Source: Mustelus asterias (taxonomy: Eukaryota). From it: a stretch of 64,000 bases of DNA. The stretch is from positions 682,001-746,000 of the forward strand of contig NW_027590189.1 in the NCBI RefSeq assembly GCF_964213995.1. The letters run 5' to 3'. The notes below the pieces were generated by a model. That model was not told the origin of the DNA. It made no database searches and was given only the letters and a program-made list of their open reading frames with translations. Made by a program: the position numbers and the translations under genes. Below, piece by piece: positions 5,228 to 64,000 of this stretch (positions within the stretch are counted from its first letter, which is position 1; each line of letters begins with the position of its first letter).

Positions 5228-5795
5228 AGATTTATAGGACCCTGGTTAGACCCCACTTGGAGTACTGCGCGCAGTTCTGGTCACCTCATTACAGGAAAGA
5301 TGTTGAAGCCATTGAAAGGGTGCAGAGGAGATTTACAAGGATGTTGCCTGGATTGGGGGGCATGCCTTATGAGGATAGGTTGAGGGAGCTTGGTCTCTTC
5401 TCCCTGGAGAGACGAAGGATGAGAGGTGACCTGATAGAGGTTTACAAGATGTTGAGAGGTCTGGATAGGGTAGACTCTCAGAGGCTATTTCCAAGGGCTG
5501 AAATGGTTGCGACGAGAGGACACAGGTTTAAGGTGCTGGGGGGTAGGTACAGAGGAGATGTCAGGGGTAAGTTTTTCACTCAGAGGGTGGTGGGTGAGTG
5601 GAATCGGCTGACGTTGGTGGTGGTGGAGGCAAACTCGTTGGGCTCTTTGAAGAGACTTCTGGATGAGTACATGGGATTTAATGGGATTGAGGGCTATAGA
5701 TAGGCCTAGAGGTAGGGATATGATCAGCGCAACTTGTGGGCCGAAGGGCCTGTTTGTGCTGTGGCTTTCTATGTTCTATGTTCTATGTTTTATGT
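5228..5795 (+). mobile_element. CR1/HER1-like LINE, 5'-truncated
   Basis: ORF 5257..5703 (LEYCAQFWSPH...RGDLIEVYK...FFTQRVV) and (ttctatg)n tail. Confidence 0.92.
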
Positions 5796-6115: not shown

Positions 6116-6221
6116 TCTTTGAACCTGCAAAGGACTCACTCATGCCAACTCTGAGCTTCCTGTTAGCCAGTCAGAAACTATCCAGACCAGTATTCTATCC
6201 CCTATCTGTGATGGTCGGAGA

Positions 6222-6386
6222 AAGAAGTTTAACAACACCAGGTTAAAGTCCAATAGGTTTATTTGGTAGCAAAAGCCACACTTTTGGTGTGGCTTTTGCT
6301 ACCAAATAAACCTGTTGGACTTTAACCTGGTGTTGTTAAACTTCTTACTGTGTTTACCCCAGTCCAACGCCGGCATCTCCACATCA
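6222..6386. mobile_element. Penelope-like element terminal remnant forming a 60-bp inverted repeat
   Basis: Arms 6222-6281 and 6287-6346 (one mismatch, 5-nt loop); same tail as 26590-26640; flanked by ATGGT(C/A)GGAGAAA at 6211 and 6386. Confidence 0.8.
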
Positions 6387-6499
6387 TGGTAGGAGAAATA
6401 CATTGATACTTCTGATTATGCTATCCATATGTGAACAGAATCTCACCTTCACTTCTCCAGATTTAGAGAAAGATTATCTGATACTGGGTCTCTAATGGC

Positions 6500-6850
6500 A
6501 GCAGGATTACCCACAGTCCCGTGCGCCTCGGAAAGCGCTCTACATCGGCGGGTTGTGCGTGTGGCTGGCGCATGCTCGGAGGGAGCAGGTCTCTTTGAGG
6601 TGATTTGTGGGGAGAAGCCGGAAGTGGCAGAAGTGAGTGGAGAATGTTCACTGTAAACCCCGCCCCTTCGAGACTGACCTTTCACCTGGCACCTCACAAT
6701 GCCCGGGGACTGATTGACGGCAGCTCCGGACCAATAGAAACAGAGGGGGGTGAACGGCTGGTCCTCAAACCAATCGGAGTGAATGAGGGGGCGGGGCTGT
6801 AACTGAAGCATGCGCAGTGCGGGTGTTGAGCTGCAAGACCTCTTCAGAAA
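6500..6850 (+). promoter_or_regulatory. CpG-rich promoter module upstream of ZNF-B
   Basis: ETS site CCGGAAGTG, two CCAAT boxes, GC boxes, NRF1-like GCATGCGCAG; module shared with 26698, 44330 and 55013. Confidence 0.75.
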
Positions 6851-16834: not shown

Positions 16835-19200
16835 TTAGAAACACATGAACTCCCATCTAATCCCATCTGCCTGCACTTGGCCCATAGCCCTGAATGTTAT
16901 AATGTGCCAAGTGCTCATCCAGATAAAGGGTGTGAGGCAACCTGCCTCTACCTCCCTCCCAGGCACCGTATTCCAGACTATCACCACCCTCTGGGCAAAA
17001 ATGTTTTTCCTCACATCCTCCCTAAACCTCCTGCACCTCACCTTGAACCTGTGTCCCTTTGTGACTGACCCTTGAACTAAGGAGAACAGCTGCTCCTCAT
17101 CCACTCTGTCCATGTCCCTCATAATCTTGTCCACCTTGATCAGGTCGTCCCTCAGTCTTCTCTGCTCTAACAGAAACAACCCAAGACTATCCAACCTCTC
17201 TTCATAACTTAAATGTTCCACCCCAGGCAGCATCCTGGTGAATCTCCTCTGCACCTCCTCCAATGCAATCACATCCTGCTGAATATATGGTGTCCAGAAC
17301 TGCACACAGTACCCCAGCTGTGGCTTCACCAAAGTTCTATACAACGCCAACATGATTTTCCTGCTTTTGTAATCTATGCCTTGATTGATAAAGGTAAGTG
17401 TCCCATATGACCTTCCACTTTCAAAGATCTGTGGACAAACACACCAAGGTCCCTTTGTTCCACAGAACTTCCTGGTGCCCTGCCATTCATTGAATACTTC
17501 CTTGTCAAATTATTCCTTCAAAAGTGCATCACCTCACACTTGTCAGGGTTAAATTCCATCTGCCACTTATCTGCCCATTTGACCATCTCATCTATATCAT
17601 CTTGTAGCCCAAGACACTCAATCTCACTGTTAACTACCTGGCCAATCTTTGTGTCACCCGCAAACTTACTAATCCTACTCCCTACATTGATAACTATATA
17701 ATTTATATGAATGATGAATAATAGTGGACCCAACACAGATCCCTGTGGTATGCCAAAGGACACCTACTTCCAGTCACTAAAGCAGCCATCAGTCATCACC
17801 CTCTGTCTCCTACAACTGAGCCACTTTTGAATCCACTTTATCAAATTACCCTGTATCCCATGTGAACATACCTTCTTTACAAGTCTCCCATGTGGAACCT
17901 TGTCAAAGGCTTTGCTGAAATCCATACAAACTACATTGACTGCACTACCCTCGTGTTGTGGGGAAATTTCAAGGAGGCCAATTGTGTCTTAACTTAGACA
18001 ATTCAAAACTCGCAAAGACGTAACAAAATTTATTCAACATAAAATAAATGTACAGCTGACCGGAGACTTCCAAAAGGTTTAAATAGCTCTGAGGAATAGA
18101 GCCATAGAACCACTCTGAAAGATCTGAAGTACAGAATCAAATAAAGATCAATTATACTTTGTCATAATCAATAATTCTGCCTTTCATTAGCTTAAAATCA
18201 ATTTCATTTACCAGTCATACATCAATACAAATCTCTGTCAAGTACCTCAGCCAACCATATGATACTTAATATCATGGTGAGATTCTATTCATCCTTCAAA
18301 TCCGGACGTCTTTCCCTTTTTGGCTCTAACTACATCTCTGTTGCCTGGTAACAGCAGACGCGACCTCAAGGTCAAAATGGACATTCCCTCCAGCTCACTG
18401 CCAAGTTGAATAGACATGTGATCCTGCATCCAGGGGCATGTCTATCCTTGTGTCTGGGCAGTGAATACATCTATTCATAAATGTTGCAGAATACGTACCC
18501 TCATCGGAATCCCACTGATAAGACAATTGCTGATTAACCAGTTCCCAGACCTTTGACTTTAAACTAATGTCGTTTACCACCATGCCTTTCGGTACCTTTG
18601 CTTGACCAAAGTGTACAATACATTAAAATACATTTAAAATATCAGCATATATGTTTTAAATAATAATTACTTGTTTTGATTCACTTTCTGCATTTACATA
18701 TGTTGGTAAACTGTTTGTTTTAGCTTGCCCAATAATCATTTAACTCTTTACTGATTTCCTGTCCTCTTAAAGACTGCATTCTGCCTCTAAATCTTATGAG
18801 TTGATGAGGAATCCCCTTCCAAACCACGTCGACACACCTGGACACCTCCTCAAAAAATTCAATCAAATTTGTTAGGCATGACCTCCCTCTGACGAAGCCA
18901 TGTTGACTATTCCTAATCAAGCTTTCCCTCTCCAAGTGGAGATAGATACTTTCCTTCAGAGGTTTCTTCAATAGCTTCCCTATCACTGACGTGTGACTCA
19001 CTGGTCTGTAGTTGCCTGGTTTGTTTCTACAATTCTCCTTAAATAGCGGAACCACATTAGCTGTTCTCCAGTCGTCTGGCACCTGTCCCGTCGCCAGAGA
19101 GGAATTGAAAATTTGGGTCAGACCCCCTGCAATCTCCTCCCTTGACTCCCACTGCAGCCTAGGGTACAATTCGTCTGAACCTGGAGATTTATCCATTTTA
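16835..19200 (-). mobile_element. CR1 LINE split by an ~870-bp insertion
   Basis: ORFs 16835..17353, 17518..17763 and 18720..19196 are colinear CR1 ORF2 pieces. Confidence 0.88.
17954..18826 (-). mobile_element. Putative solo LTR inserted into CR1
   Basis: Non-coding block with TG...CA ends cleanly interrupting CR1 (ccctcg|...|cgtcgacac); minus-strand AATAAA near 18030; TSD unclear. Confidence 0.5.
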
Positions 19201-21036: not shown

Positions 21037-21134
21037 TTACTCACCTGAAGAAGGGGCTTGCAGCTCCGAAAGCTTGTGTGGCTTTTGTTACCAAATAAAC
21101 CTGTTGGACTTTAACCTGGTGTTGTTAAACTTCA
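21037..21134 (+). mobile_element. ~98-bp Penelope-derived mini-insert with 12-bp TSD
   Basis: TCCTGTCCTGGA at 21025-21036 and 21135-21146; content is a hammerhead motif plus the Penelope tail. Confidence 0.85.
21042..21078 (+). ncRNA. Minimal type I hammerhead ribozyme motif
   Basis: CAC-CUGAAGA-A-GGGGCU(UGC)AGCUCC-GAAA-GCUU-GUG. Confidence 0.7.
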
Positions 21135-21190
21135 TCCTGTCCTGGACACAGTTGAAAATCTCCATGCAGGCGGCCAGACAGATATACTCA

Positions 21191-23930: not shown

Positions 23931-24559
23931 ATATGTTTGAATAAAGTCATCCTCACTCTTCTAAACTCCAAGGAATACAGACCCAGACTATTTAGCCTCT
24001 CTAGATAGGACAACTCTATTTGTCCTGACCTCGGTGTCCAGGACAGGAAGCAGTGAGCATGGATCTGTCATTCATCCTGAATCAGCACCATCAGGAGTGT
24101 TGGGTGGCTGAATGTTAGATCCGGCAGCGTGAGAATGGAGGGACAATGTGTGGGATGGAGATTTACAGATTTTCATTAATGACAGAGGAAAGGATGTTCC
24201 CATAGAAGCGAGAATTGTCTGTTCTGATTGTGATGCTTTTTGTAAATTGTTTTTACAGGATATCAGAAGAGGAGGAATCACAGACAGAAATCTCAAACGT
24301 CACATCTCAATCTGACAGAGTCACGGTCTGTCGGCTTCAAAAGATTTCAAACATCAGTGTGATTGGAAAAGCACCGAGACACACACACACCTGAGTGAGA
24401 GTGTTCCAGTGAACCAACTGTGGAAAGAGCTTTAACCAGTGACACAGCCTGAAGAAATATCACACCATTCACAAAAAAGAGCAACTGTACATGTGTTCTG
24501 TGTGTGGATGAAGCTTCAACTGATCGTCCAACCTGGAGAGGCACAAGGACACCAGCACC

Positions 24560-25657
24560 ATGGGGAAACCATGGAAATGTGGGGACTGTGGGAAGGAATT
24601 CCGGTTTTCGTCACAACTGGAAATCCATCAGCGCATTCACACTGGGGAGAAGCCATTTACCTGCCCTCAGTGTGGGAAGGGATTCACTCAGTCATCCCAC
24701 CTGCAGACACACCAGCGAGTTCACACTGGAGAGAGGCCATTCACGTGCGCTGAGTGTGGGAAGGGATTCACTCGGTTATCCTTCCTACAGTCCCACAAGA
24801 GAGTTCACACTGGAGAGAGACCACTCACCTGCTCTCAGTGTGGGGAGGGATTCACTCAGTCGTCCCACCTGCAGACTCACCGGCGAGTTCACACCGGGGA
24901 GAAACCGTTCACCTGCTCTCAGTGTGGGAAAGGATTCACTCAGTCATCCCACCTGCAGATACACCAGCGAGTTCACACTGGGGAGAGGCCATTCACCTGC
25001 TCTCAGTGTGGGAAGCAATTCCGTGATTCATCCCACCTGCGGAGACACCGGCGAGTTCACAGCGGGGAGAGGCCGTTCACCTGCTCTGTGTGTGGGAAGG
25101 CATTCACTGATCCATCAACCCTGCAGAGACACCAGCAAGTTCATACTGGGCAGAAGCCATTTATCTGCTCCCAGTGTGGGAAGAGATTCCCTCTCTCATC
25201 CCAGCTGCTGACACACCAGAGAGTTCATACTGGGGAGAGGCCATTCACTTGCTCTGTGTGTGGGAAGGGATTCACCATGTCAGCCAATCTATTGAGACAT
25301 CAGCGAGTTCACACTAGGGAGAGGCCATTCACCTGCTCTCAGTGTGGGAAGGGATTCAGTGATTCATCCGCTCTGCAAATACACCAGCGCATTCACACTG
25401 GGGAGAGACCATTCACCTGCTTTCAATGTGGGAAGGGATTCACTCAGTTATCCAACCTGCAGATACACCAGCGAATCCACACTGGGGAGAGACCATTCAC
25501 CTGCTCTCACTGTGGGAAGGTCTTCTCTTGGCTTTTCAAACTGCAGACACACCAGCAAATCCACACTGGAGAGAAACCGTTCACCTGCTCTCAATGTGGG
25601 AAGATATTCAGTGATTCATCCTCCCTGCGGAAACACTGGCGAGTTCACACAGAGTAG
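24560..25657 (+). CDS. C2H2 zinc-finger protein ZNF-E, 13 fingers (a decayed 14th follows the TAG)
   Basis: Kozak ACCATGG; intact 365-aa array; acceptor ttttacag|G at 24258. Confidence 0.9.
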   Translation: MGKPWKCGDCGKEFRFSSQLEIHQRIHTGEKPFTCPQCGKGFTQSSHLQTHQRVHTGERPFTCAECGKGFTRLSFLQSHKRVHTGERPLTCSQCGEGFTQSSHLQTHRRVHTGEKPFTCSQCGKGFTQSSHLQIHQRVHTGERPFTCSQCGKQFRDSSHLRRHRRVHSGERPFTCSVCGKAFTDPSTLQRHQQVHTGQKPFICSQCGKRFPLSSQLLTHQRVHTGERPFTCSVCGKGFTMSANLLRHQRVHTRERPFTCSQCGKGFSDSSALQIHQRIHTGERPFTCFQCGKGFTQLSNLQIHQRIHTGERPFTCSHCGKVFSWLFKLQTHQQIHTGEKPFTCSQCGKIFSDSSSLRKHWRVHTE

Positions 25658-26242
25658 GGGTCGTTCACCTGCTCTCAACGTGGGAATGGAATTGCTTACT
25701 CATTCCATCTGCTGAGACACCAGCGAGTTCACAAGTGATTCCAGGGTTTGGATTCTGCTGTTATTGTTTCTGCTCTCACTTATGTCCAGGACTGCATTTT
25801 GTTTATTCTCTCAGTTGGTCAATGGGGAGAGTCAGAGGGTTTCTTGATGCTGGACTGGCCGGTCTCAGCCTCCAGTGGGCTGATGCTCTTTGAGCCTGGA
25901 AGAGCACATTTCTTGTCTTCAAATTTCACAAGGATCACAAGAGTGAAGCACGTTTGTCAGTTCAAAGATATTTCATTCGTAATTCTGTTTGGAACCCCAC
26001 TGAAGTATGTGACATTTCCATGGAGATGGGCTGTGGTACTTATATGGTTCTTTTGTTTAATTTATCTGGGTGTTTCTCACAGAAGAGAACTAAAATATGA
26101 GATCCTGTATCTGAGATGGATTGGGAAACTGCATCAAAAGGTATAATGGGAGATAGGCAATAGCTAATATTTCAGGGATTATTATATGTTGACAAGAGTT
26201 AGCTCAGTTGGCTGGATGGCTTGTTTGTGGAGTGGAGGTTCA

Positions 26243-26643
26243 CGGCAGTGCAGAGTCGCTGAGCAGAGACTGATAGCCAGGTTCCGCACACATGAGGACG
26301 GCCTCAACCAGGATATTGGGTTCATGTCACACTATCTGTAACCCCCACAACTTGCCTGGATGTGCAAAATCTCACTGGCTGTCCTGTCTGGAGACAATAC
26401 ACATCTCTTTAACCTGTGCTTAATGCTCCCTCCACTCACATTGTCTGTACCTTTAAGGCTTGATTAGTTGTAAAGACTCGCATTCCAATTATTATTCATG
26501 TAAATTGAGTTTGTGTCTTTGTGCCCTGTTTGTGATCAGAACTCCCACCCACCTGATGAAGGAACAGCCTGTTCCGAAAGCTAGTGGCTTTTGCTACCAA
26601 ATAAACCTGTTGGACTTTAACCTGGTGTTGTGAGACTTCTTAA
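26243..26643 (+). mobile_element. Penelope-like element 3' fragment (GIY-YIG C-terminus + 3' UTR)
   Basis: 26243-26341 = RQCRVAEQRLIARFRTHEDGLNQDIGFMSHYL*, with the E..I..F.T...GLN signature; UTR matches 54298-54573. Confidence 0.85.
26549..26587 (+). ncRNA. Minimal type I hammerhead ribozyme motif
   Basis: CCAC-CUGAUGA-A-GGAACA(GCC)UGUUCC-GAAA-GCUA-GUGG; stems I and II fully paired. Confidence 0.82.
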
Positions 26644-26689
26644 CAATAATCAGCAAGTCAGCCTGAGTCTGTGGCCACTCTCACCATCT

Positions 26690-27265
26690 GAAATCGTCAC
26701 AATGTCTGGCTGATTGACGGCAGCTTCGGACCAATAGAGAGAGAGGGGAGGGGAGGGGCGGGAAGACCGCGCGGGAGCGGCTGGTCCTCCAAGCAATGGG
26801 AGTGAATGAGGGGCGGGGCCGGGAGTGAATGAGGGGCGGGGCCGGGCTGGGAGTGAAGCATGCGCAGTGTGGTTAATGGCGGTTGGCGAGGTGATTGTTA
26901 TGATCCACAATATCTAGGACAAAATAGTGGATGGGAGGGAGCGATGGATCCAGCTACCGGGCGGAGATGTTTCCTAAACATGTTGTGTAACCGCAATCCT
27001 CGAAAAAGAGCTTCCAGGTTCCTCCAGCTGCACTGAGTGGGTCTCCAGCTCCGAGTGATCGGTCCGGGTTAACGGCCGCCATCTTTATTGGGGCCAATGT
27101 GCAACGGGGATAATGTGGAACAGGGCTGCAACGTGGCCGCCATCTTTGTAGGGGGCAAGTTGTCGAGTGGGTGGAGCTTGTTTCCCATTGTTCAGAATGG
27201 AGACAACTTGTCCATCAAATTGCATCAATCCTCTGAGTCCCAATGTCTTATTGATGAGGCAGAGC
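26690..27265 (+). promoter_or_regulatory. CpG-rich promoter module (probably for ZNF-F at 33767)
   Basis: CCAAT, several GGGGCGGGG, NRF1-like site, two YY1 GCCGCCATCTT; homologous to 44330-44895 upstream of the paralog ZNF-H. Confidence 0.72.
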
Positions 27266-28045: not shown

Positions 28046-29479
28046 GTCGTGTAATGGGAATAGTTAAACTTTATCTACCTTATCTAAACCTATCATAAAT
28101 TTGTACACCTCTGCCAAATCTTGCCTCAATCTCCTTTGCTCCAAGGAGAATAACGCCAGTTTCTCCAGCCTAACATTGTAATTATAATCCCTGGATTCAT
28201 TCAGGTCAATCTCCTCTGCACCCTCTTAAGGAGCCTCACATCCTCCATAATGTGTGGTGATCACTGGTTTGCACAGACCCAGATGTTCTGTGTACCTCCT
28301 TGTGATCTCATCACACACCCACAATTCCACAGTGACATCAGCCCCACTCCCCAGGTATTTCCTCAACTGGGAGACTTTTCTCTGACTCCAGTGTTTCTGA
28401 TATCTTTCCAGCTGCAGGTCCCAACAGAAGAGTTTAAATTTATAACAGTGAAATTGTTTCACAGATGTATGTTTGTGACCATTGTTCTTCAATTGAGAGT
28501 TGTTCGTGCTGAGCTTTGTTCTCTGTGAGAGGTTCCATGTCTTTGTGGCTGGTCTGACTCCTTTACTGTGGATCTGACTCCATGTGCATTCATTGCTCTG
28601 TTTCACCTCTGCTTTCCCTGATCATCTCTCGGCCAGTGTCTAACTCCTCTCTCGAATAATGGGTGTATTTCAGCTGTGTTCAGTATTTCACTGTCACTTC
28701 TGCCAGTTGTGTCTAAAGAAGGTTCCCAATTGTAATGAATGATGCGCTGCTGGCTTACCAGCTTCCCACAGTATCGTGAATAGTCAGGAATTGTTTTTCC
28801 TGTGTTCTCGTCCACTTCTCCTATTTCTGAGGTTACATTACATTTGGCACCATTTTTATTCCACATAGTTCATTCTGCACACCCTGGATCATTGATTCTG
28901 TCTTTCTCACCCCAGCTACTGCCTGACCTGCTGAATATTTCCAATATTAGCTCTTTTTAGTTCAGATTTCCAGCAGCATCAGTATTGGGCTTTTATTTTA
29001 TTGCAGACATTTCTGAGTCTAGTAATTGAGAGGAACTACTTAAGAACTAATCTATATCAGGGTGGACCCTTGCCTCCAGTGCAGGTCCTTTTTCATTGAT
29101 TCATAGCATCACAGAATGATTACAATACAAGTGCTGTCCTTTAGCATGTTGCACCCTTGTGGCTCTCTGCAAGGACAAGGCAGTTAGACCCATTCTCCTG
29201 CCTTTTCCTCACAACCCAGCATTTTCTTTCTCTCCGGGGTCTTGTCCAGTTCCCTTTTCCTTGTTGTATCAGTTGGAGCTGGAATGGAGATATAGGAGAA
29301 GCGGTTGGGTTTAACCGCAAAAACTTATGAACTCAGTCGGATCCAGCAATTTCCAATGTGAAATTGTCAGGAGAGTTAGATTCTAGGGAGATCAGGTTGT
29401 GAAACAATCACTATCTGTACAAAGGAAAAGGATATTGTTAGAGGAACAGGTATTTCTGCAGATGTGATTTTTCTGTTTC

Positions 29480-30670
29480 ACACATACGTTGACGAAGGGA
29501 AGGCGGTAGATGTGGTTTATATGGATTTTAGCAAGGCGTTCGATAAGGTCCCCCATGCAAGGCTTCGAGAAAAAGTGAGAGGGCATGGGATCCAAGGGGC
29601 TGCTGCCCTGTGGATCCAGAACTGGCTTGCCCAAAGGAGGCAGAGAGTGGGTATAGATGGGTCTTTTTCTAAATGGAGGTCGGTCACCAGTGGTGTGCCC
29701 CAGGGATCTGTTCTGGGACCCTTGCTGTTTGTCATTTTCATAAATGACCTGGATGAGGAAGTAGAGGGGTGGGTTGGTAAGTTTGCCGACGACACGAAGG
29801 TTGGTGGGGTTGTGGATAGTCTGGAGGGATGTCAGAAGTTACAGAGGGACATAGATAGGATGCAAGACTGGACGGAGAAGTGGCAGATGGACTTCAACCC
29901 AGATAAATGCGTAGTGGTCCATTTTGGCAGGTCAAATGGGATGAAGGAGTACAATATAAAGGGAAAGACTCTTAGTACCGTAGAGGATCAGAAGGACCTT
30001 GGGGTCCGGGTCCATAGGACTCTAAAATCGGCCCCGCAGGTGGAGGAGGTGGTTAAGAAGGCATATGGTGTGCTGGCCTTTATCAATCGAGGGATTGAGT
30101 TTAGGAGTCCGGGGATAATGATGCAGCTATATAAGACCCTCGTCAGACCCCACTTGGAGTACTGTGCTCAGTTCTGGTTGCCTCACTACAGGAAGGATGT
30201 GGAAAAGGTTGAAAGGGTGCAGAGGAGATTTACAAGGATGTTGCCTGGATTGAGTGGCATGCCTTATGAGGATAGGCTGAGGGAGCTCGGTCTTTTCTTC
30301 TTGGAGAGACGTAGGATGAGAGGAGACCTCATAGAGGTATATAAGATGTTGAGAGGCATAGATCGGGTGGACTCTTAGAGGCTATTTCCCAGGGTGGAAA
30401 TGGCTGCTACGAGAGGACACAGGTTTAAGGTGCTGGTGGGTAGGTACAGGGGAAATGTTCGGGGGTGGTGGGCGAGTGGAATCGGCTGCCGTCAGCGGTG
30501 GTGGAGGCAAACTCAATAGGGTCTTTTAAGAGACCCCTGGATGAGTACATGGGACTTAATAGGATGGAGGGTTATAGGTAAGCCTAAAAGGTAGGGATAT
30601 GTTCGGCACAACTTGTGGGGTCGAAGGGCCTGTTTTGTGCTGTAGTTTTTCTATGTTTCTATTTCTATAT
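29480..30670 (+). mobile_element. CR1/HER1-like LINE, 5'-truncated, young
   Basis: ORF 29464..30378 with [19 protein letters not shown] and KFADD; (tttctat) tail. Confidence 0.95.
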
Positions 30671-43620: not shown

Positions 43621-43967
43621 CACAGATCTATCAATGTGCTCGGACAAAGAACAATGCAGTACAGGAAAAGGCCCTTCGGCACACCAAGCCTGCACCGATA
43701 CGCTGTTTCCATCTCTCTGTTCGCTTCCTGTTCATGCATCTGTCAAGCAGATAATTTCATGAATTACTTGTGACAACATGAATCTGAACCACCCTGACTG
43801 ACCAGACAGAATCACAGACGTTAACCTTGTGTCCAGAACTGATTTTCTCAGAGGAGCCTCAGTCACCATCATTGAGACTAATTTTGAATTCGAGATTTTA
43901 TTGATTGAATGGATTTCAAGCCCTGTCCCCATAACAATGTGCTGTCTCTCTGTATTACTTATGCAGT

Positions 43968-44208
43968 CATGATGTGGAGATGCCGGCGTTGGACTGGGGT
44001 GAACACAGTAAGAAGTCTCACAACACCAGGTTAAAGTCCAACAGGTTTATTTGGTAGCAAAAGCCACACAAGCTTTCAGAGCGCTCTGTGCCCTGTTTGA
44101 GAGCAGATTTCCACTCCATCTGACGAAGGAGCAGTGCTCCGAAAGCTAATGGTATTTGCTACCAAATAAACCTGTTGGACTTTAACCTGGTGTTGTTAAA
44201 ACTCTTAC
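43968..44208. mobile_element. Penelope-like terminal remnants in inverted arrangement
   Basis: Minus copy 43968-44085 (truncated within the ribozyme) and plus copy 44087-44208. Confidence 0.82.
44116..44152 (+). ncRNA. Minimal type I hammerhead ribozyme motif
   Basis: CCAU-CUGACGA-A-GGAGC(AGU)GCUCC-GAAA-GCUA-AUGG. Confidence 0.82.
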
Positions 44209-44259: not shown

Positions 44260-44900
44260 AAGTGGCGGACAGTGATAGTCGTAAACCCCCCCCCCCCCCC
44301 CGACGACACTGACCTCTCACCTGACACCTCACAATGCCCGGGGACTGATTGACGGCAGCTCCGGTCCAATAGCAGGAAGGGGCGGGGCTGGAGGAGCGAG
44401 CGGCAGCGGCTGGTCCTCCAACCAGACTGAATGAGGGGCGGGGCTGAGTGAAGCATGCGCAGTGTGATTAATGGCGATGGAGAGAGGATTTCTCGGATCC
44501 ACAATCAGAAAAAGTGGGAATGGCGGGCGGAGGCAGCGATGAATCAGGCGGAGGGATTAGAGAGGCTTCGTAATCATGAACAACAAACCTCTGCAAAAAA
44601 AACCGACCGCTATCCGAAGATGGTCCCGGCCGTTTGCACAGAGCAAGGCCGCTGCTTTCTTCCCGCGACAGACCCGGGTTAACTGCCGCCATTTTTATCC
44701 GGGCACTACCAATATGGCGCATGCGCGGTTGCCATCTTTATTAGGAGCAATAGCCCTCTATTAGAAGCGCATGCGCAGCCGCCCTCTTTATGAGGGGCAA
44801 TGATTTTGAAATTCGCCCGAGTGACAGAATGTGAACAACTTGTCCATCAAACTGCTTCGCTCTTTCACTTCCAATTTCTTACTGATGAGGCAGAGCAACG
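44260..44900. promoter_or_regulatory. CpG-island promoter between divergent ZNF-G and ZNF-H
   Basis: Shared CCAAT/GC module; NRF1 palindromes GCGCATGCGC at ~44717 and ~44767; YY1 GCCGCCATTTT. Confidence 0.78.
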
Positions 44901-53787: not shown

Positions 53788-54288
53788 TGAGAATGATGTG
53801 ATTATTTTTCAGACTTTTTAAACCACTTTCCACATTCAGCACATTGGAAACTCTCAGGTGTGTGTGTGTCTAGGTGCTTTTTCAGTCACACTGATGTTTG
53901 AAATCTTTGCCCGCAGACAGAATAAACATTTCTCCTTCTGGAGACAAAGGCTGACGATATTCAGTTTCTGATGAATCAAATCACTGAAACAGATCTTGAT
54001 TTGAAGTTTGTTTTGAGTTTCACATCTGTAAATCCTGCTTCATAATACCCTGCAAAAACAGTTTACAAATACCATCACTGTCAGTGCAGGATAGAAATTC
54101 TGAACAGACAATTCATGGTTTCTCTGGAACATATTTTCCTCTCTTGTTCCCCCAAATCTATAAATCCCCGTCCCACACACTCTACCTCCTCCCCTGGACT
54201 GAAATCCAAACCCATCTCAACATCTCCACCATTTCTTCCCTCCACTCCCAGTTTTCCCCCTCCCTCTCCTCTGTCTGGGTTCAGTTCT

Positions 54289-54573
54289 TGATGTGGAAAT
54301 CTCACTAACTGTCCTGGCTGGAGACAGTACACATCTCTTTAACCTGTGCTTAACCCTCTCTCCACTCACATTGTCTGTACCTTTAAGACTTGATTGCCTG
54401 TAAAGACTCACATTCCAACCATTATCTTGTAAATTGAGTTTGTGTCAATATATATGCCCCGTTTATGAACACAAGTCCGACTCACCTGATGAAGGAGCAG
54501 TGATCCGAAAGCGAGTGGCTTTTGCTACCAAATAAACCTGTTGGTCTTTAACCTGGCGTTGTGAGACTTCTTA
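54289..54573 (+). mobile_element. Penelope-like 3' UTR insert with 14-bp TSD
   Basis: CTGGGTTCAGTTCT at 54275-54288 and 54574-54587; matches 26367-26643. Confidence 0.85.
54482..54518 (+). ncRNA. Degenerate hammerhead ribozyme motif (probably inactive)
   Basis: CUGAUGA..GAAA core intact; stem II mismatch and cleavage triplet CUA changed to CGA. Confidence 0.55.
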
Positions 54574-55060
54574 CTGGGTTCAGTTCTCCAGCTGCTGTCT
54601 GCAGACTGACAATAAAACCAATGGCTCTTATTGGGGGTGTTGGGGCCTCCAGCGGGTGTTTGTGAATCCTCCCCGCCCACCTCCCAGGGTTTCCTTCCTT
54701 CCCAGAGATCAGAGTCCTCATTGATTTGAGGCCAAAGTCTAACCTCTTATTTATTGTCCCCCTCCCCCATCCTCTGATGTGAACCATCCTCCAGTGGCTG
54801 AGCCAGGATGGGGCCGTTAACCTGGGCCTGTTCCCGGGAGGGAGGGAGGGAGAAGCCCCGCAGCTGCAAACCAGGGAGCTGACAATGATTCTGAAGGGTT
54901 TGCGGATCCACAAAGTGTTTCCAAATCCTCCCAGCCACCGCCTAACGCTGACTCCGCTTCTCCGGGACAAACAAGCGCCAAGGACAGCAATGACACTGCG
55001 CATGCTCCACATCACAATGCCCGGGGACTGATTGACGGCAGCTCCGGACCAATAGGAAGA

Positions 55061-55250
55061 GGGGGCGGGACTGGCCGACCGAGCGGGAGCGGCTGGTCCT
55101 CCAACCAATCGGAGTGAACGAGGGGCGGGGCTGGAGGACCGAGCGGGAGCGGCTGGTCCTCCAATCAATCAGAGTGAACGAGGGGCGGGGCTGGAGGACC
55201 GAGCGGGAGCGGCTGGTCCTCCAACCAATCGGAGTGAATGAGAGGCGGGA
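55061..55250. repeat. 60-bp tandem repeat (~3.2 copies) in the promoter
   Basis: gagcgggagcggctggtcctccaaccaatcggagtgaacgaggggcggggctggaggacc. Confidence 0.95.
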
Positions 55251-55539
55251 CCTGAAGCATGCGCAGTGCGGGTAATGGCGACGGGTAGACGGGCGGTTTT
55301 AATTTGGAGGCGAGATCAATACTAGGTAGGGGGCGGCGCGCGGGGAATGATAAATGTGGCGGGTGGGTGGAGAGACTTTGTAAACATGTTGTTCAAACCC
55401 AGACCCCGGAAATGAACTTCCCGGTCCCCCCCTTTGTACCAAATGGAGCGGCAGCTTGTAGTGTTAGACCCGGGCTGACTGCCGCCATTGAGGCTGCATG
55501 TGGGAGGCCGGCAGGGATTGTGATCGGAGAGGGAAGCCC

Positions 55540-55613: not shown

Positions 55614-56405
55614 TGATCGGAGAGCGAAATTTCACTCTGAAGCTCATTGGACAACTTCCGCATTGTGACGCTACGATAGAACCCTGCCTGAATCAGCCAA
55701 TAGGAATCACTGCGCTCCGCGGTGATGTCTCCGGGTTCCATGGTGCAGGCCCGGGCGCGCGGACCCGGGAGCCCCGCCCCCACCCATTGTTCCCCTCCCC
55801 CTACACCACATCGAGCCAAGGTTTCCAGGCAACCGGCTGACGGCTCTGGCCAGAGCGAGAAGCCGCTCGGTGATCTCCCCCTCCCCCCGCCCGGGACTGC
55901 AAAATGTGCGAGGGAGAGGGGAAGCTGTGCATATGCGGGGGAGAACCCACCCTCTGAATGAGAGAGGAAAGAATGTTCCATAGAAACTAGAATTGTCTGT
56001 TCTGAATTTCTACCCTGTACTGACACTGATGACTTTTGGAAACTCATTTTCCAGGATATTGAAAGAGGAATCACAGGCTGAAATCTCAAACGTCACGTCT
56101 AGATCTGACAGAGTCATATTCCTTGGGACCTCAATATCATCGGACTTTGAATCCAGAAGGAGAAATGATTGTCCAGTCTGTCGATTTGAAAAGATTTGAA
56201 ATGTCAGTGTGAGTGAAAAAGCGTCAACACACTGCCACACTCGAGTGAGTGTGTTCCAATGCACTGACTAAAGAGCTTTAACCAGTTACACAGTCTGAAT
56301 AAATATCACACCATTCACAGCAGGTGGAGACTGTAATCTTGTTCTGTGTGTGGACGAAGTTTCAACTAATTGTCCACTCAAGAGTGAGGTAAGGACACCT
56401 GCACC

Positions 56406-58511
56406 ATGGCGAAACCATGGAAATGTGCGGACTGTGGGAAGGGATACGGAACCCCATCAGAGCTGGAAGCTCATCGGCGCAGCCACACTGGGGAGAGGCC
56501 GTTCATCTGCTCTCAATGTGGGAAGGGATTCAGTCAGTTATCCAACCTGCAGAGACACCAGCGAGTTCACACTGGGGAGAGGCCGTTCACCTGCTCTCAA
56601 TGTGGGGAGGGATTCACTCAGTCATCCCACCTGCAGAGACACCAGCGAGTTCACACTGGGGAGAGGCCCTTCACCTGCTCTCAGTGTGGGAAGGGATTCA
56701 CTCGGATATCCAGCCTCCAGAGACACCAGCGAGTTCACACTGGAGAGAGGCCGTTCACTTGCTCTCAGTGTGAGAAGGAATTCACTTATTTATCCAGCCT
56801 GCAGACACACCAGCGAGTTCACACTGGGGAGAGGCCATTCACCTGCTCTCAGTGTGGGGAGGGATTCACTCGGTCATCCCGCCTGCAGTCACACCAGCGA
56901 GTTCACACTGGAGAGAGGCCGTTCACCTGTTCTCAATGTGGGGAGGGATTCACTCAGTCATCCCACCTGCAGAGACACCAGCGAGTTCACACTGGAGAGA
57001 GGCCGTTCACTTGCTCTCAGTGTGAGAAGGAATTCACTCATTTATCCAGCCTGCAGATACACCAGCGAGTTCACACTGGGGAGAGGCCGTTCACCTGCTC
57101 TCAGTGTGGGGATGGATTCACTCAGTCATCCCGCCTGCAGAGACACCAGCGAGTTCACACTGGAGAGAGGCCATTTACCTGCTCTCAGTGTGGGAAGAGG
57201 TTCACTCAGTTATCCAGCCTGCAGAGACACCAGCGAGTTCACACTGGGGAGAGGCCATTCACCTGCTCTCAGTGTGGGAAGGGATTCATTCAGTTATCCG
57301 AGCTGCGGACACACCAGCGAGTTCATACAGGGGAGAGGCCATTCACTTGCTCTCAGTGTGGGGAGGGATTCACTCGGTCATCCAGCCTGCTGACACACCA
57401 GCGAATTCACACTGGGGAGAGGCCGTTCACCTGCTCTCAGTGTGGGAAGGGATTCAATCAGTTATCCAACCTGCAGGCACACCAGCGAGTTCACACTGGG
57501 GAGAGGCCGTTCACCTGCTCTCAGTGTGGGAAGGGATTCACTCGGTCATCCGACCTGCGGGCACACCAGCGAGTTCACACTGGGGAGAAGCCCCCATTCA
57601 CCTGCTCTCAGTGTGGGAAGGGATTCACTCGGTCATCCCACCTGCAGAGACATCAGCGAGTTCACACTGGGGAGAGACCGTTCACCTGCTCTCAATGTGA
57701 GAAGGGATTCACTCTGTCATCCCACTTGCAGACACATCAGCGAGTTCACACCGGAGAGAGACCATTCACCTGCTCTCAGTGTGCGAAGGGATTCATTCAG
57801 TTATCCAGCCTGCAGAGACACCAGCGAGTTCACACTGGAGAGAGGCCGTTCACCTGCTCTCAGTGTGGGAAGGGATTCACTCAGTTATCCAGCCTGCAGA
57901 CACACCAGCGAGTTCACACTGGGGAAAGGCCGTTCACCTGCTCTCAGTGTGGGAAGGGATTCACTCGGTCAACCCATCTGCGGACACACCAGCGGGTTCA
58001 CACTGGAGAGAGACCGTTCACCTGCCCTCAGTGTGGGAAGGGATTCACTCGGTTATCCAGCCTGCAGACACACCAGCGAGTTCACACTGGGGAGAGACCA
58101 TTCACCTGCTCTCAGTGTGGGAAGGGATTCACTCGGTCATCCGACCTGCGGACACACCAGCGGGTTCACACAGGGGAGAAACCATTCACCTGCTCTCAGT
58201 GTGGGCAGGGATTCACTCAGTCATCCAGCCTGCGGGCACACCAGCGAGTTCACACAGGGGAGAGGCCGTTCACCTGCTCTCAGTGTGGGAAGGGATTCAC
58301 TCAGCTTTCCAACCTGCAAACACACCAGCGAGTTCACACTGGGGAGAGGCCGTTCACCTGCTCTCAGTGCGGGCAAGAATTCACTCAGTTATCCAACCTG
58401 CAGACGCACGAGCGAGTTCACACTGGGGAGAGGCCGTTCACCTGCTCTGTGTGTGGGAAGGGTTTCAGCGTTTCATCCCGGCTGCTGAGGCACCAGCAAG
58501 TTCACGAGTGA
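56406..58511 (+). CDS. C2H2 zinc-finger protein ZNF-J, 25 fingers, highly homogeneous array
   Basis: Intact 701-aa ORF = 25 x 28 aa plus one Pro insertion; Kozak ACCATGG. Confidence 0.93.
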
Positions 58512-58736
58512 TTCCAGAGGTTGGATTCTGCTGTTATTGTTCCTGCTCTCAATTACATCCAGGATTGCATTTTGTTCATTCTCACAGTTGGTCAATGGGA
58601 AGGGTCAGAGGGTTTCTTTGTGCTGGACTGGCTGGTCTCAGCCTCCAGTGGGTTGATGCTCTTTGAGTCTTTTTGCAAATACCTGGTTTCAAATGTCACA
58701 AGGATCACAGAGTGACAGGGTGTTAGGAAGTTTAGA

Positions 58737-59815
58737 GATATTTAGTCAGAAGAAAACAGAGGTTGGCAGTGCAAAGGTACCTTTCTGAATGGAGGGCTGT
58801 GACAAGTGACATTCCGCAGGGATCAGTGCTGGGACTTTTGCTGTTTGTAATATATATAAATGATTTGGAGGAAAATGTAACTGGTTTGATTGGTAAGTTT
58901 GTGGACGACACAAAGGTTGGTGGAATTGCGGATAGCGATGGGGAACGGCAAAGGATACAGCAGGATATAGAGCAGTTGGAGAATTGGGCGGAGAGATGGC
59001 AGATGAAGTTTAATCCGGACAAATGTGAGGTAATGCATTTTGGAAGGTCTAATACAGAATGGAAATATACAGTAAATGGCAGAACCCTTAAGAGCATTCA
59101 TAGGCAGAGGGATCTCGGTGTACAGGTACACAGGTCATTGAAAGTGGTAATGCAGGTGGAGAAGGTAGTCAAGAAAGCATATGGCATGCTTGCCTTCATC
59201 GGCCGGGGCATTGAGTTTAAAAATTGGCAAGTCATGTTGCAGCTTTATAGAACCTTAGTTTGACCGCACTTGGAATCTAGTGTTCAATTCTGGTCACCAC
59301 ACTACCCGAAGAATGTGGAGGCTTTGGAGAGGGTACGGAAAATATTTATCAGGATGTTGCCTGGTGTGGAGGGCATTAGCTATGAGGAGAGTTTGGAGAA
59401 ACCTGGTCTGTTCTCACTGGAACGACGGAGGTTGAGGGGAGACCTGATAGAAGTCTCCAAGATTATGAGGGGCATGGACAGAGTGGATAGTCAGAAGCTT
59501 TTTCCCAGAGTGGAAGAGTCAGTTACTGGGGGGCATAGGTTTAAGGTGCGAGGGGCAAGGTTTAAAGGAGATGTACAAGGCAGGTTTTTTACACAGAGGG
59601 TGGTGGGTGCCTGGAACTCGTTGCCGGGGAAGGTAGTGGAAGCAGATACGATAGTGACTTTTAAGATGTGTCTTGACAAATATATGAATAGCATAGGAAT
59701 AGAGGGATATGGTCCCGGAAAGGTAGGGGGTTTTAGTTCAGACGGGCAGCATGGTTGCTGCAGGCTTGGAGGGCCAAAGGGCTTGTTTCTGTGCTGTAAT
59801 TTTCTTTGTTCTTCG
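58737..59815 (+). mobile_element. CR1 LINE, 5'-truncated
   Basis: ORFs 58763..59263 and 59270..59893. Confidence 0.93.
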
Positions 59816-60616
59816 TTCTGTTTGGAACATCACAAATGCCCATCCAATTTCCTTTTTAATTGTTTATTGTCTCCACTTCCTCCACCCTCATAGACAGCGA
59901 GTTTCAGGTCATTACCATTCACTGCATCAGAATATTCTTCCTCACATCTCCCCCCTCAATTCCCCCCCACCCCACTGCCCCCCCCCCCCCCCCCCCCAGC
60001 CCCCCACTCCCCCCTCCCTTGCATCTCTAACCCAAAACAAGAAATCTGTGTCCCCCCTCGTCCTTGTTCCATCAGCTAATGGGAACAGCTTTTCTTTGTC
60101 CACCTTATCTAAACCTGTCAGAATCTTGTCCCCCATCTATCAAATCTCCCCTCAACCTCCTTTGCTCCAAGGAAAACAACCCCAGCCTGACATTGACAAT
60201 AAAGAACAAACTAACAGAATATGTTACTGTCTGAAATCAAATGGGAATGTTTAATTTCTGTTTGAAAGATATTGTGAATGTATTGTCCTGGACAATAAAG
60301 GAATTGGAATAACACACCTTGGGTGTGGTTGAATGGAATATATCAATCTGATATTCACCTACAGTCCAGTGAAAGTCTGGAATATGTAGCTGGAAGTCCC
60401 TTCCTAACAGCAATGTGGGTGTACGTACACCTCAGGCATTGCAGCAGTTCAGGAAGGCACCCTTGGGGTTGGGGTTGACCACGGCCAAGGCAGCTCCATA
60501 CAGCCACATATTCTGTTATAATTGAAGGACTGCAGATTGAATGTGAGGCATTGTGGGACTGGACTATCTTGACCATATTCCTGTGACTGCCCGGAAACTC
60601 ATGTGTCTATTTTAAA

Positions 60617-62135
60617 GCACAAAGAACAGTACAGCACAGGAACAGGCCCTTCGGCCCTCCAAGCCTGCGCTGATCATGTGTTCCTAACTAGACCATCCAT
60701 TTGTATCCCTCTATTCCTAGTCGTTCATGTGGTTATCAAGATGAGTCTTAAATGTTTCTCGCGTGTCTGCCTCAACCACCTTGCTTGGTAGTGCACTCCA
60801 GGCCCCCACCACCCTCTGTGTAAAATACGTCCCCCGCATATCTGTATTGAACCTTGCCCCCCTTACCTTGAACTTGTGACCCCTTGTGTTTGTCATTGCT
60901 GACCTGGAAAAAAGCTTCCAACTGTTCACCCTATCTATGCCCTTCGTAATTTTGTAAACTTCTATTAGGTCGCCCCTCAACCTCCGTCTTTCCAGGGAGA
61001 ACAACCCGAGTTTACTCAATCTCTCCTCATAGCTAATACCCTCCATACCAGGCAACATCCTGGTAAACCTTTTCTGTACTCTCTCCAAAGTCTCCGCGTC
61101 CTTCTGGTAGTGTGGTGACCAGAACTGGACACAGTATTCCAAATGCGGCCGAACCAACGTTCCATATAACTGCAACACCATGTGCCAACTTTTATACTCT
61201 ATGCCCCAATAAAGGCAAGCATGCCATATGCCTTCTTCACCACCTTTTCCACCTGTGCTGCCACCTTTAAGGATCGTGGACTTGCACACCCAGATCCCTC
61301 TGTGTGTCTATACTCCTGATGGTTCTGCCATTTATTGTATAGCTCCCCCCTGCATTAGATCTACCAAAATGCATCACTTCACATTTATTTGGATTAAATT
61401 CCATCTGCCATTTCTCCACCCAATTTTCCAGCCTATCTATATCCTGCTGTATTCTCTGACAATGTTCATCACAATCCACAACTCCAGCAATCTTTGTGTC
61501 GTCCGCAAACTTACTGATCACACCAGCTACATCTTCCTCCAAATCATTTATATATATCACAAACAGCAGAGGTCCCAGTACAGAGCCCTGTAGAACACCG
61601 CTAGTCACAGACCTCCAATCAGAAAAAGACCCCTCCACTGCTACCCTCTGTCTTCTATGGCTAAGCCAGTTCTGTACCCATCTAGCTGGTTCACCTTTGA
61701 TCCCATGAGATTTAACCTTTTGCACCAGCCTTCCATGAGGGACGTTGTCAAACGCTTTACTAAAATCCATGTCGACGACATCCACGGCCCTTCCCTCGTC
61801 AGTCATTTTTGTCACCTCCTCAAAAAACTCAACCAAATTTATGAGGCATGACCTCCCTTGTACAAAACCATGTTGTCTATCGCTAATGAGATTATTCAGT
61901 TCTAAATGTGTATAGATCCTATCTCTAAGAATCTTCTCCAACAATTTCCCTACCACGGACATCAAGTTCACTGGCCTATAATTACCCGGGTTATCCTTGC
62001 TACCCTTCTTAAATAACGGGACCACATTTGCTATCCTCCAATCCTCTGGGACCTCACCTGTGTCCAATGAAGAAACAAAGATTTTTGTGAGAGGCCCAGC
62101 AATTTCATCTCTTGTCTCTCTCAGTAACTGGAAAC
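60617..62135 (-). mobile_element. CR1 LINE, 5'-truncated
   Basis: ORFs 61267..62199 (RT) and 60717..61289. Confidence 0.93.
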
Positions 62136-62136
62136 T

Positions 62137-64000
62137 TGATAAGGTGCCCCATGCAAGGCTTATTGAGAAAGTGAGGGGGCATGGGATCCAAGGGGACATT
62201 GCTTTGTGGATCCAGAACTGGCTTGCCCACAGAAGGCAAAGTTATAGACGGTTATAGACGGGTTATAGACGGGTCATATTCTGCATGGAGGTCGGTCACC
62301 AGTGGAGTGCCCCAGGGATCTGTTCTGGGACCCTTACTCTTTGTGATTTTTATAAATGACCTGGATGAACAAAGAACAGTACAGCACAGGAAACAGGCCC
62401 TTCGGCCCTCCAAGCCTGTGCTGCTCCTTGGTCCAACTAGACCAATCGTTTGTATCCCTCCATTCCCAGGCTGCTCATGTGACTATCCAGGTAAGTCTTA
62501 AACGATGTCAGCGTGCCTGCCTCCACCACCCTACTTGGCAGCGCATTCCAGGCCCCCACCACCCTCTGTGTAAAAAACGTCCCTCTGATGTCTGAGTTAT
62601 ACTTCGCCCCTCTCAGCTTGAGCCCGTGACCCCTCGTGATCGTCACCTCCGACCTGGGAAAAAGCTTCCCACTGTTCACCCTATCTATACCCTTCATAAT
62701 CTTGTACACCTCTATTAGATCTCCCCTCATTCTCTGTCTTTCCAAGGAGAACAACCCCAGTCTACCCAATCTCTCCTCATAGCTAAGACCCTCCATACCA
62801 GGCAACATCCTGGTAAACCTTCTCTGCACTCTCTCCAATGCCTCCACGTCCTTCTGGTAGTGCGGCGTCCAGAACTGGACGCAGTACTCCAAATGTGGTC
62901 TAACCAGCGTTCTATACAGCTGCATCATCAGACTCCAGCTTTTATACTCTATACCCCGTCCTATAAAGGCAAGCATACCATATGCCTTCTTCACCACCTT
63001 CTCCACCTGTGTTGCCACCTTCAAGGATTTGTGGACTTGCACACCTAGGTCCCTCTGTGTTTCTATACTCCTGATGACTCTGCCATTTATTGTATAACTC
63101 CTCCCTACATTATTTCTTCCAAAATGCATCACTTCGCATTTATCCGGATTAAATTCCATCTGCCACCTCTCCGCCCAATTTTCCAGCCTATCTATATCCT
63201 GCTGTATTGCCCGACAATGCTCTTCGCTATCCGCAATTCCATGAGGAAGTGAAAGGATGGGTTGGCAAGTTTGCTGATGATACAAAGGTTGGAGGTGTTG
63301 TGGATAGTGTGGAGAGATGTCAGAAGGTGCAGCGAGACATTGATAGGATGCAAGACTGGGTGGAGAAGTGGCAGATGGAGTTCAACCCAGATAAGTGTGA
63401 GGTGGTTCATTTGGCAGGTCAAATAGGATGGCGGAATATAATATTAATGGTAGGACTCTTGGCAGAGTGGAAGATCAGAAAGATCTTGGGGTCAGAGTTC
63501 GTAAGACGCTCAAAGCAGCTGTGCAGGTTGAGGCTGTGGTTAAGAAGGTGGATGGTGTACTGGCCTTCATCAATCGAGGAATTGAGTTTAGGAGTCGTGA
63601 GATAATGTTGCAGCTATATAAGACCCTGGTCAGACCACACTTGGGGTACTGTGCTCAGTTCTGGTCGCCTCATTACAGAAGGATGTGGAAATCATAGAAA
63701 GGGTGCAGAGGAGATTTACAAGGATGTTGCCTGGATTAGGTGACATGCCTTATGAGGATAGGTTGAGTGAGCTCAGTCTTTTCTCCTTGGAGACATGAAG
63801 GATGAGGGGTGACCTGATAGAGGTGTATAAGATGTTGAGAGGTATTGATCGAGTGGATAGTCAGAGGCTTTTTCCCAGGGCTGAAATGGTTGCCACAAGA
63901 CCACACAGGTTTAAGGTGCTGGGGAGTAGGTACAGAGGAGATGTCAGGGGTAAGTTTTTCACTCAGAGGTTGGTGGGTGCGTGGAATGGGCTGCCAGCAA
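62137..64000 (+). mobile_element. CR1/HER1-like LINE interrupted by a nested CR1 (62137-62368 + 63241-64000)
   Basis: INDLDE|..|EEVKGWVGKFADD resumes at 63241; ATGA duplicated at both junctions. Confidence 0.88.
62369..63240 (-). mobile_element. Young CR1 LINE nested in the opposite orientation
   Basis: ORF 62437..63285 intact over the CR1 C-terminal region. Confidence 0.92.

Follow-up and report, generated by a model that had tools for sequence, protein, structure and literature searches.

The locus and its hammerhead motifs

The window, by which we mean the whole 64,000-nucleotide stretch of Mustelus asterias DNA that was analysed, is a dense cluster of about ten multi-finger C2H2 exons on both strands, with up to 25 fingers at 56388-58511. 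One of its genes, here called ZNF-E, is followed by a hammerhead ribozyme motif in the sense orientation, which a first-pass annotation had placed about 900 nt past the stop codon and which measures 892 nt from it. The features needed for the analysis are as follows.

6219-6388, minus (6219-6281) and plus (6287-6388): inverted pair of tail-only arms of a Penelope-like element (PLE), with a 13-bp target-site duplication that has one mismatch
21039-21140, plus: very short PLE copy with a hammerhead at 21042-21078 (U17, 3-bp stem I) and a 12-bp target-site duplication
24560-25657, plus: ZNF-E, a C2H2 zinc-finger ORF of 13 fingers, ATG at 24560 and TAG at 25655-25657
26196-26237, plus: head of a repeat that we take to be SINE-like, cut off by the PLE; its intact continuation is present in PLE-free paralogues (L216-L225)
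26241-26642, plus: 5'-truncated PLE copy with ORF end, 3' UTR/pLTR containing the hammerhead, and short-tail 3' end
26243-26341, plus: final 32 codons of the PLE ORF together with its stop, the end of the GIY-YIG domain (ending in FRTHEDGLNQDIGFMSHYL before the stop), matching the C-terminus of the full ORF
26549-26587, plus: minimal type I hammerhead, with A17 at 26583 as the last base before the predicted cut and 26584 as the first after it
26549-26552 with 26584-26587, plus: stem I of this hammerhead, CCAC with GTGG
26553-26559, plus: CTGATGA of this hammerhead, followed by an extra A at 26560
26561-26575, plus: stem II of this hammerhead, GGAACA/GCC/TGTTCC
26576-26579, plus: GAAA of this hammerhead, followed by GCT and then A17 at 26583
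26600-26605, plus: AATAAA in the tail of the PLE, 16 nt past the predicted cut; no canonical poly(A) hexamer lies between it and the ZNF-E stop
43965-44093, minus: inverted partner arm with long tail, its 5' end inside stem II and without a complete core
44093-44208, plus: PLE copy with a hammerhead at 44116-44152, of the CCAU:AUGG subfamily
54287-54580, plus: older PLE copy whose hammerhead, at 54482-54518, is broken, with a 14-bp target-site duplication

A pattern scan recovers the four CUGANGA..GAAA cores that had been reported at 21045, 26553, 44120 and 54486, all on the plus strand. Three of them are intact minimal type I hammerheads in which CUGANGA, GAAA and UH occur in type I order, while the copy at 54486 is broken: it reads AGCG in place of the palindromic AGCU proposed as stem III and found in the other three, so that U16.1 is lost and position 16.1 is a G. 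The stem variation described for these copies is real in part. Stem I is CCAT:ATGG at 44120 as claimed, but the copy at 21045 has only three contiguous pairs (CAC:GUG); the three variants of stem II are present, one of them (GGGGCU:AGCUCC) with a G-U pair, but at 54486 the stem contains a G/A mismatch (GGAGC/GATCC). The bare core pattern is only mildly above chance, with 15 matches in the window against a shuffled mean of 8.0 and four of 100 shuffles reaching the observed count; the four named copies also have one downstream tail in common. Covariance models, which had been suggested as a check, did not recover the motif: the Rfam hammerhead families gave no match at E<=1 anywhere in the window, where the Rfam scan returned two unrelated weak miRNA matches.

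The carrier is a Penelope-like retrotransposon

Each of the four cores sits in the 3' end (pLTR) of a 5'-truncated PLE copy. The suggestion that these are hammerheads of the kind borne by PLEs is supported by the piece at 26241-26642, which starts in the end of a PLE ORF and matches full elements. It is 96-98% identical (mean 97.6%) to 25 dispersed copies (L006-L030), several of which reach further 5' into an ORF with YIDD and GIY-YIG-like motifs, and its flanks contain no target-site duplication.

A search with the PLE protein gave 100,229 first-look candidates, of which 113 were scored, and ten stretches around long ORFs were examined. Three of these loci (L041, L043, L044) consist of tandem 3,097-bp units in which hammerheads 3,097 bp apart flank an ORF of 893 aa, and the predicted cut in full elements lies 99 nt upstream of the ATG of this ORF. 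The full ORF matches RVT_1 (E 4.3e-10). GIY-YIG was not reported in the domain search with the 893-aa ORF, in which YIDD and VVY..YIG motifs are visible by eye; in L030 it is found at E 3.2e-4, with 21.4 bits against a Pfam cut-off of 22.6, and the atlas protein clusters that match the ORF carry both RVT_1 and GIY-YIG. The element has the architecture of an endonuclease-bearing (EN+) PLE, namely a single ORF with a reverse transcriptase (RT) and, at the C-terminus, a GIY-YIG domain, a tandem/pLTR organisation, inverted truncated partners and a 30-40-bp tail.

Between the RT and the endonuclease the ORF contains the CX4CxxC linker CHSNLCKTC. Since a CX2-5CxxC linker marks Neptune or Nematis (PMC8557442), and only Neptune and Poseidon have been found in vertebrates according to the accessible part of a recent survey (bioRxiv 10.64898/2026.07.22.740005), the element is likely to belong to the Neptune clade, as judged by the linker motif and not by a tree.

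The 3' ends of 122 copies have two peaks, at +62-66 (51 copies) and at +99-101 (28 copies) after the predicted cut, with the ATG at +100. In the inverted pairs at L056, L064, L067, L195 and 6219-6388 of the window, the tail is long, reaching to the ATG, in one arm and short in the other, and the pairs are flanked by 12-14-bp target-site duplications. A long inverted pair with near-full PLE ORFs (L050:2090-6772) has a 993-codon open frame on one strand. The arms of the pair at 43965-44208 come from different subfamilies (GTGTGG versus ATGG in stem I), which suggests either template switching between RNAs or a nested insertion.

Copy number

Exact matches to the intact core number 143,969 in the 3.68-Gb genome, assembly duplicates included, and exact matches to the 33-nt tail number 142,431; the reversed control gave 0 in each case. 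The accessible text of the survey of metazoan minimal hammerheads gives about 4,000 motifs in coelacanth and about 9,000 in Xenopus (PMC4209133). The count also exceeds the 126,247 canonical hammerhead motifs of axolotl (PMC7229834), in a genome about one-eighth as large. An arbitrary sample of 1 Mb (100 stretches of 10 kb) contains 56 recognisable cores, 40 of them intact, and changes that break the core occur in this sample only as scattered copies.

The density of hammerheads in the window is ordinary, because three exact cores are observed against 2.5 expected per 64 kb from the genome average (P=0.46). An enrichment in the zinc-finger cluster was accordingly rejected; a tolerant count gives 4 against 3.6.

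Covariation, constraint and folding

Covariation was evaluated in an alignment of the four window copies with 39 of the 56 cores of the random set; the excluded cores were mostly haplotype repeats, together with several copies truncated at the junction. Among the 42 distinct copies, 92.9% of stem cells pair and four of nine pairs have two-sided changes; none of 500 shuffles matched this, and slid controls gave 25-47% pairing. Helices I and II therefore covary across subfamilies, with the counts resting on few independent lineages, and with the caution, given by the tool itself, that related sequences can beat shuffles; some of the changes are CpG decay.

Conservation extends to the catalytic positions. 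In 93 anchored cores the first pair of stem I is C-G in 59 and U-A in 28, the first pair of stem II (G10.1-C11.1) is G-C in 84 and G-U in nine, the unpaired nucleotide between A9 and G10.1 is A in 92, and helix III is AGCU in nearly all. Position 17 is U in 48, A in 32, C in 13 and G in none, and genome-wide only 1,263 cores have G at this position against the 143,969 intact ones (reversed controls 0). The deficit of G17 is in part a matter of few founders, since N7 is also never G in the 93 copies. We infer from these sequences that the pattern would fit selection on master elements followed by neutral decay once a copy has been inserted.

In the minimum-energy fold of 26549-26587 both stems I and II form, at -11.6 kcal/mol (z -2.1, with nine of 200 shuffles as good), but in a 142-nt context the pair probability of stem I is 0.01, so that it is not predicted to form. 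The stem III of a monomer cannot form over a 2-nt loop, and a lone ribozyme of this kind would lack the stem because A15.1-U16.1 would close just such a loop. According to a review (PMC6765202), hammerhead cleavage as a dimer has been studied by Lunse et al. The modelled active dimer, at -21.3 kcal/mol, has no advantage over two monomers (2 x -10.6, or -21.2), and a duplex with swapped stems II lies far below the modelled double hammerhead at -34.6 kcal/mol. Nearest-neighbour energies thus favour no active dimer, and dimer energetics were rejected as support for cleavage. The energies agree with published behaviour: a single minimal PLE hammerhead had no detectable cleavage and a dimer cleaved weakly (PMC4209133), and the hammerhead of an anole PLE cut only with its PLE protein (PMC11167929).

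Insertion 5' ends at the predicted cut

In the inverted pair at 6219-6388, the first base of each arm is precisely the one that follows the predicted cut. The genome-wide distribution of such starts was counted for the main subfamily with patterns that require three upstream mismatches. It contains 1,443 copies that start at +1, 297 at -2 and 153 at -3, where the expected spill-over in the last two counts is about 120 and 25. By estimate, about 3,600 copies belong to the +1 class, which makes up a few percent of the main subfamily. A hand tally of the first 100 of 3,523 matches gives 11 at +1, seven at +2, up to 16 at +3, 23 at +6 and 3-6 at -4..-1, so that a sharp spike at a single base is not supported and the tally describes a raised zone over +1..+3. 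For the second subfamily, the first 100 of 2,244 matches, also tallied by hand, comprise six starts at -4, four at -3, seven at -2, 21 at -1/+1, 13 at +2, three at +3, 13 at +4 and 33 at +5 or later. The class of copies starting with GTGG was rejected as the cut site of the second subfamily, since it consists mostly of the +3 class of the main one.

We tentatively attribute the +1 surplus to cleavage by the ribozyme in vivo, in which case the RT would have run off the ends of cleaved templates, although we regard this as somewhat short of an even bet. Nearly as probable is that the motif is kept as a structural or protein-binding signal that never cuts in vivo, and that the surplus reflects microhomology at the junction or a transcription start. 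The composition of the junctions bears on both readings. In a hand count, 32 of the first 100 +1 junctions have AAAA or AAAG, which resembles the end of the partner arm and is what microhomology would give, but the surplus is still about 3-6-fold without this class. The main subfamily has U|G at its cut, which would fit the pyrimidine-purine initiator of a transcription start, but copying of a cap would give an excess of G, and outside the AAAA/AAAG class the junctions have A in 20, C in 23 and G in 25 cases (hand count).

The position of the surplus is similarly two-sided. The start count at +6 reaches 789 (pooled over two subfamilies and mostly palindrome-driven), which shows that a hot spot can arise from a palindrome, and the interval -3..+4, with an expectation of about 1.5, holds no start among the 122 unbiased copies. 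A weaker bump, on the other hand, is found at the cut in the second subfamily, the sequence of which is different. Partner arms seldom pass upstream of the cut: those of arms starting at -1..+3 reach beyond -3 in four of 27 cases, against five of seven for arms starting at -2..-5 (Fisher P=0.007, for groups chosen post hoc and with loci lacking a partner dropped). A signal without catalysis is further disfavoured by the conservation of catalytic positions, and not only of helices, across subfamilies.

The function of PLE hammerheads has been called unclear (PMC8557442). In anole, mutants of the PLE hammerhead had no effect on insertion in vitro, and in the accessible text no RNA-seq reads begin or end at the cut, which speaks for the absence of cutting, whereas in the shark the genomic 5' ends are in surplus at that position (PMC11167929). 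No report of such a 5'-end footprint was found in the literature searched, which consisted mainly of open-access main texts. The high copy number makes the question of cutting in vivo testable from DNA alone, through the profile of insertion 5' ends. If the attribution to cleavage is correct, this profile would be a fossil record of germ-line RNA being cut by minimal PLE hammerheads, in a few percent of cycles. In that case the RNA left by the cut would begin 99 nt upstream of the ATG, and at thousands of host 3' ends, that of ZNF-E included, a poly(A) signal supplied by the PLE would have a conditional cutter just upstream of it.

The hammerhead downstream of ZNF-E

It had been proposed that the copy at 26549 could cleave the nascent 3' extension of ZNF-E. 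The geometry permits this, but nine paralogues lack the insertion, the hammerhead has no evident partner in cis and its stem I has the low probability given above. In its fullest form the proposal is that ZNF-E RNA reads into the PLE and uses its AATAAA, and that the hammerhead, with the abundant PLE RNAs as partners in trans or the PLE protein as a helper, cuts 16 nt upstream and removes the poly(A) tail. We consider such a co-option very unlikely.

The arrangement itself is suitable, with a sense orientation and an intact core that has A17. From the stop up to 26600 there is no canonical hexamer, the AATAAA of the PLE being the first, so that transcripts of ZNF-E may well extend through the ribozyme; read-through into the PLE is plausible. 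The insertion also coincides with the loss of the downstream part that holds the first AATAAA in the PLE-free paralogues. A precedent is the Clec2 hammerhead, which also occupies a host gene's 3' region, close to the site of poly(A) processing; it differs in being a discontinuous type III motif that is kept across mammals, while the insertion here is young and missing from close paralogues (PMC6155905).

The 3' region of ZNF-E was found at 20 loci, comprising five recent duplicates with the insertion, nine close paralogues without it and six more distant loci. The nine are 93-95% identical over the 3' region, with the SINE-like repeat intact, so that nine of 14 close loci lack the hammerhead and there is no retention at the same place across related genes of the Clec2 kind. 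Past the PLE the sequence shows no relation to that in the PLE-free paralogues, and this, together with the missing target-site duplication, means that the insertion marks a deletion or rearrangement. The insertion is recent, as judged by the 97.6% mean identity to its sister copies, and the duplicates drift at the cut nucleotide: A17 is the subfamily state (22 of 25 sister copies) and is retained in the window, but four of the five insertion-bearing loci have U. Co-option is also disfavoured by the ordinary density of hammerheads in the zinc-finger cluster, by the improbability of stem I in context and by the published inactivity of single minimal hammerheads on their own (PMC4209133, PMC11167929). 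The nearest partner on the same strand, at 21045, would lie upstream of the likely CpG-rich ZNF-E promoter at about 21.5-22.5 kb.

Transcripts were sought in the contigs of four runs (three of unrecorded kind, one guessed to be RNA) over 25400-27100; across the PLE itself, contigs derived from repeats predominate. In runs X19 and X21 the longest piece that extends to the junction has the 6-nt insertion known from the PLE-free paralogues and diverges from the window at 26237. This PLE-free-type contig spans 25980-26237 and continues beyond (two runs of unrecorded kind), so that the 3' regions of the family may be transcribed past the insertion point, as co-option would require. No piece bridging the junction at 26237-26241 is among the pieces listed for the two transcriptome-like runs. 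X19 and X21 have zero cover at 26654-26710, which is uninformative.

Interpretation and relation to known systems

The motif is very probably the pLTR minimal type I hammerhead of a very abundant, likely Neptune PLE, of which the copy at 26549 is a probable passenger, inert toward ZNF-E. This kind of hammerhead is already known (Cervera and de la Pena 2014), and the present element is a further member. The alternative reading of the window copies as non-LTR retrozymes, which are short non-coding repeats in tandem, each with a hammerhead, and give circular RNAs, can be set aside as extremely improbable: retrozymes do have type I hammerheads, derive from PLE pLTRs and are present in one sampled chondrichthyan (bioRxiv 10.64898/2026.07.22.740005), but the window copies stand alone, with 5.5 kb or more between them, are truncated to varying extents at the 5' end and run on into PLE coding sequence, and the tandems that were found are coding units of 3,097 bp.

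For the PLE, a life cycle may be proposed in which tandem read-through RNA would serve as the template and reverse transcription would start internally, at +62-66 and +99-101, as it does in vitro for the anole PLE. The two 3' end sites together with truncation from the 5' side are the reason that almost every insertion leaves the hammerhead behind. Most copies run through the hammerhead, which implies that most templates are uncut; on this uncut majority the cDNA would pass through the ribozyme, while the cut minority, a few percent of templates, would give short inserts that begin at the cut. Cutting would be slow, occurring as a dimer through the AGCU palindrome or with help from the PLE protein, and selection on the fold would act on the replicating master lineages and not on inserted copies such as that at 26549.

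The motif agrees with the minimal hammerheads of metazoan PLEs in its type I core with an extra nucleotide between 9 and 10.1 and a G10.1-C11.1 pair, in its 4-bp helix I and small palindromic helix III region, and in its pLTR location in mostly solitary truncated copies, as reported in Neptune PLEs of fish; stem II is 5-6 bp here, and sharks are not named in the accessible part of that study (PMC4209133). The element as a whole resembles the EN+ Neptune PLEs described by Craig et al. (2021, PMC8557442). Those have a single ORF in which a CX2-5CxxC linker follows the RT and GIY-YIG forms the C-terminus, and they share with it the partial tandems, the inverted partners truncated at the 5' end, a tail at one end and a pLTR hammerhead. 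The shark element differs in that no microsatellite targeting is seen at the window copies, and the linker is not confined to Neptune, being found in Nematis as well.

With PAc, the Poseidon PLE of anole (Frangieh et al. 2024, PMC11167929), the shark element shares tandem units, a mostly uncut template, and two RT start sites that give a 30-40-bp tail with the hammerhead upstream of both. In PAc, however, the start of the ORF lies within the hammerhead and that of RT within the ORF, while in the shark the cut is 99 nt before the ATG and the second RT start is at the ATG. The retrozymes of axolotl are similar in their type I motif, their weak helix III, their better performance as dimers and their number (more than 100,000 per genome), but these are canonical motifs in short non-coding tandems of a 28-Gb genome, whereas here the motifs are PLE ends at roughly nine times the axolotl density (PMC7229834).

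Other features of the region

A GC-rich promoter-like module with CCAAT, GGGGCGGGG and GCATGCGC elements, the factor labels of which are presumptive, occurs at 6675-6822, 26678-26896, 44310-44490 and 55008-55284, and genome-wide it has 1,698 first-look candidates, the best matches being mostly on smaller contigs. At 26237-26680 the PLE links the truncated SINE-like head to sequence that the PLE-free paralogues lack, so that a deletion or rearrangement, which the insertion accompanied, brought a copy of the module beside the 3' end of ZNF-E. Two window PLE copies end within about 120 nt of a module. Of 30 module loci surveyed, five are duplicates of the query locus; among the other 25, six have a tail on the same strand, 400-570 nt upstream, which appears to go back to one older insertion that was duplicated, and 16 have no tail inside the 3-kb locus. 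Targeted insertion upstream of the module was rejected on these counts.

The region is duplicated at about 98-99% identity on four contigs (C71, C91, C104 and C109). Upstream of the ZNF-E ATG, at about 24490-24560, the reading frame resembles an extra degenerate finger broken by stops, and similar sequence precedes other zinc-finger ORFs. Many LINE-type RT fragments, presumably CR1-like, are present in both orientations at 5230-5703, 16835-17509, 29380-30378 and 58736-63605.
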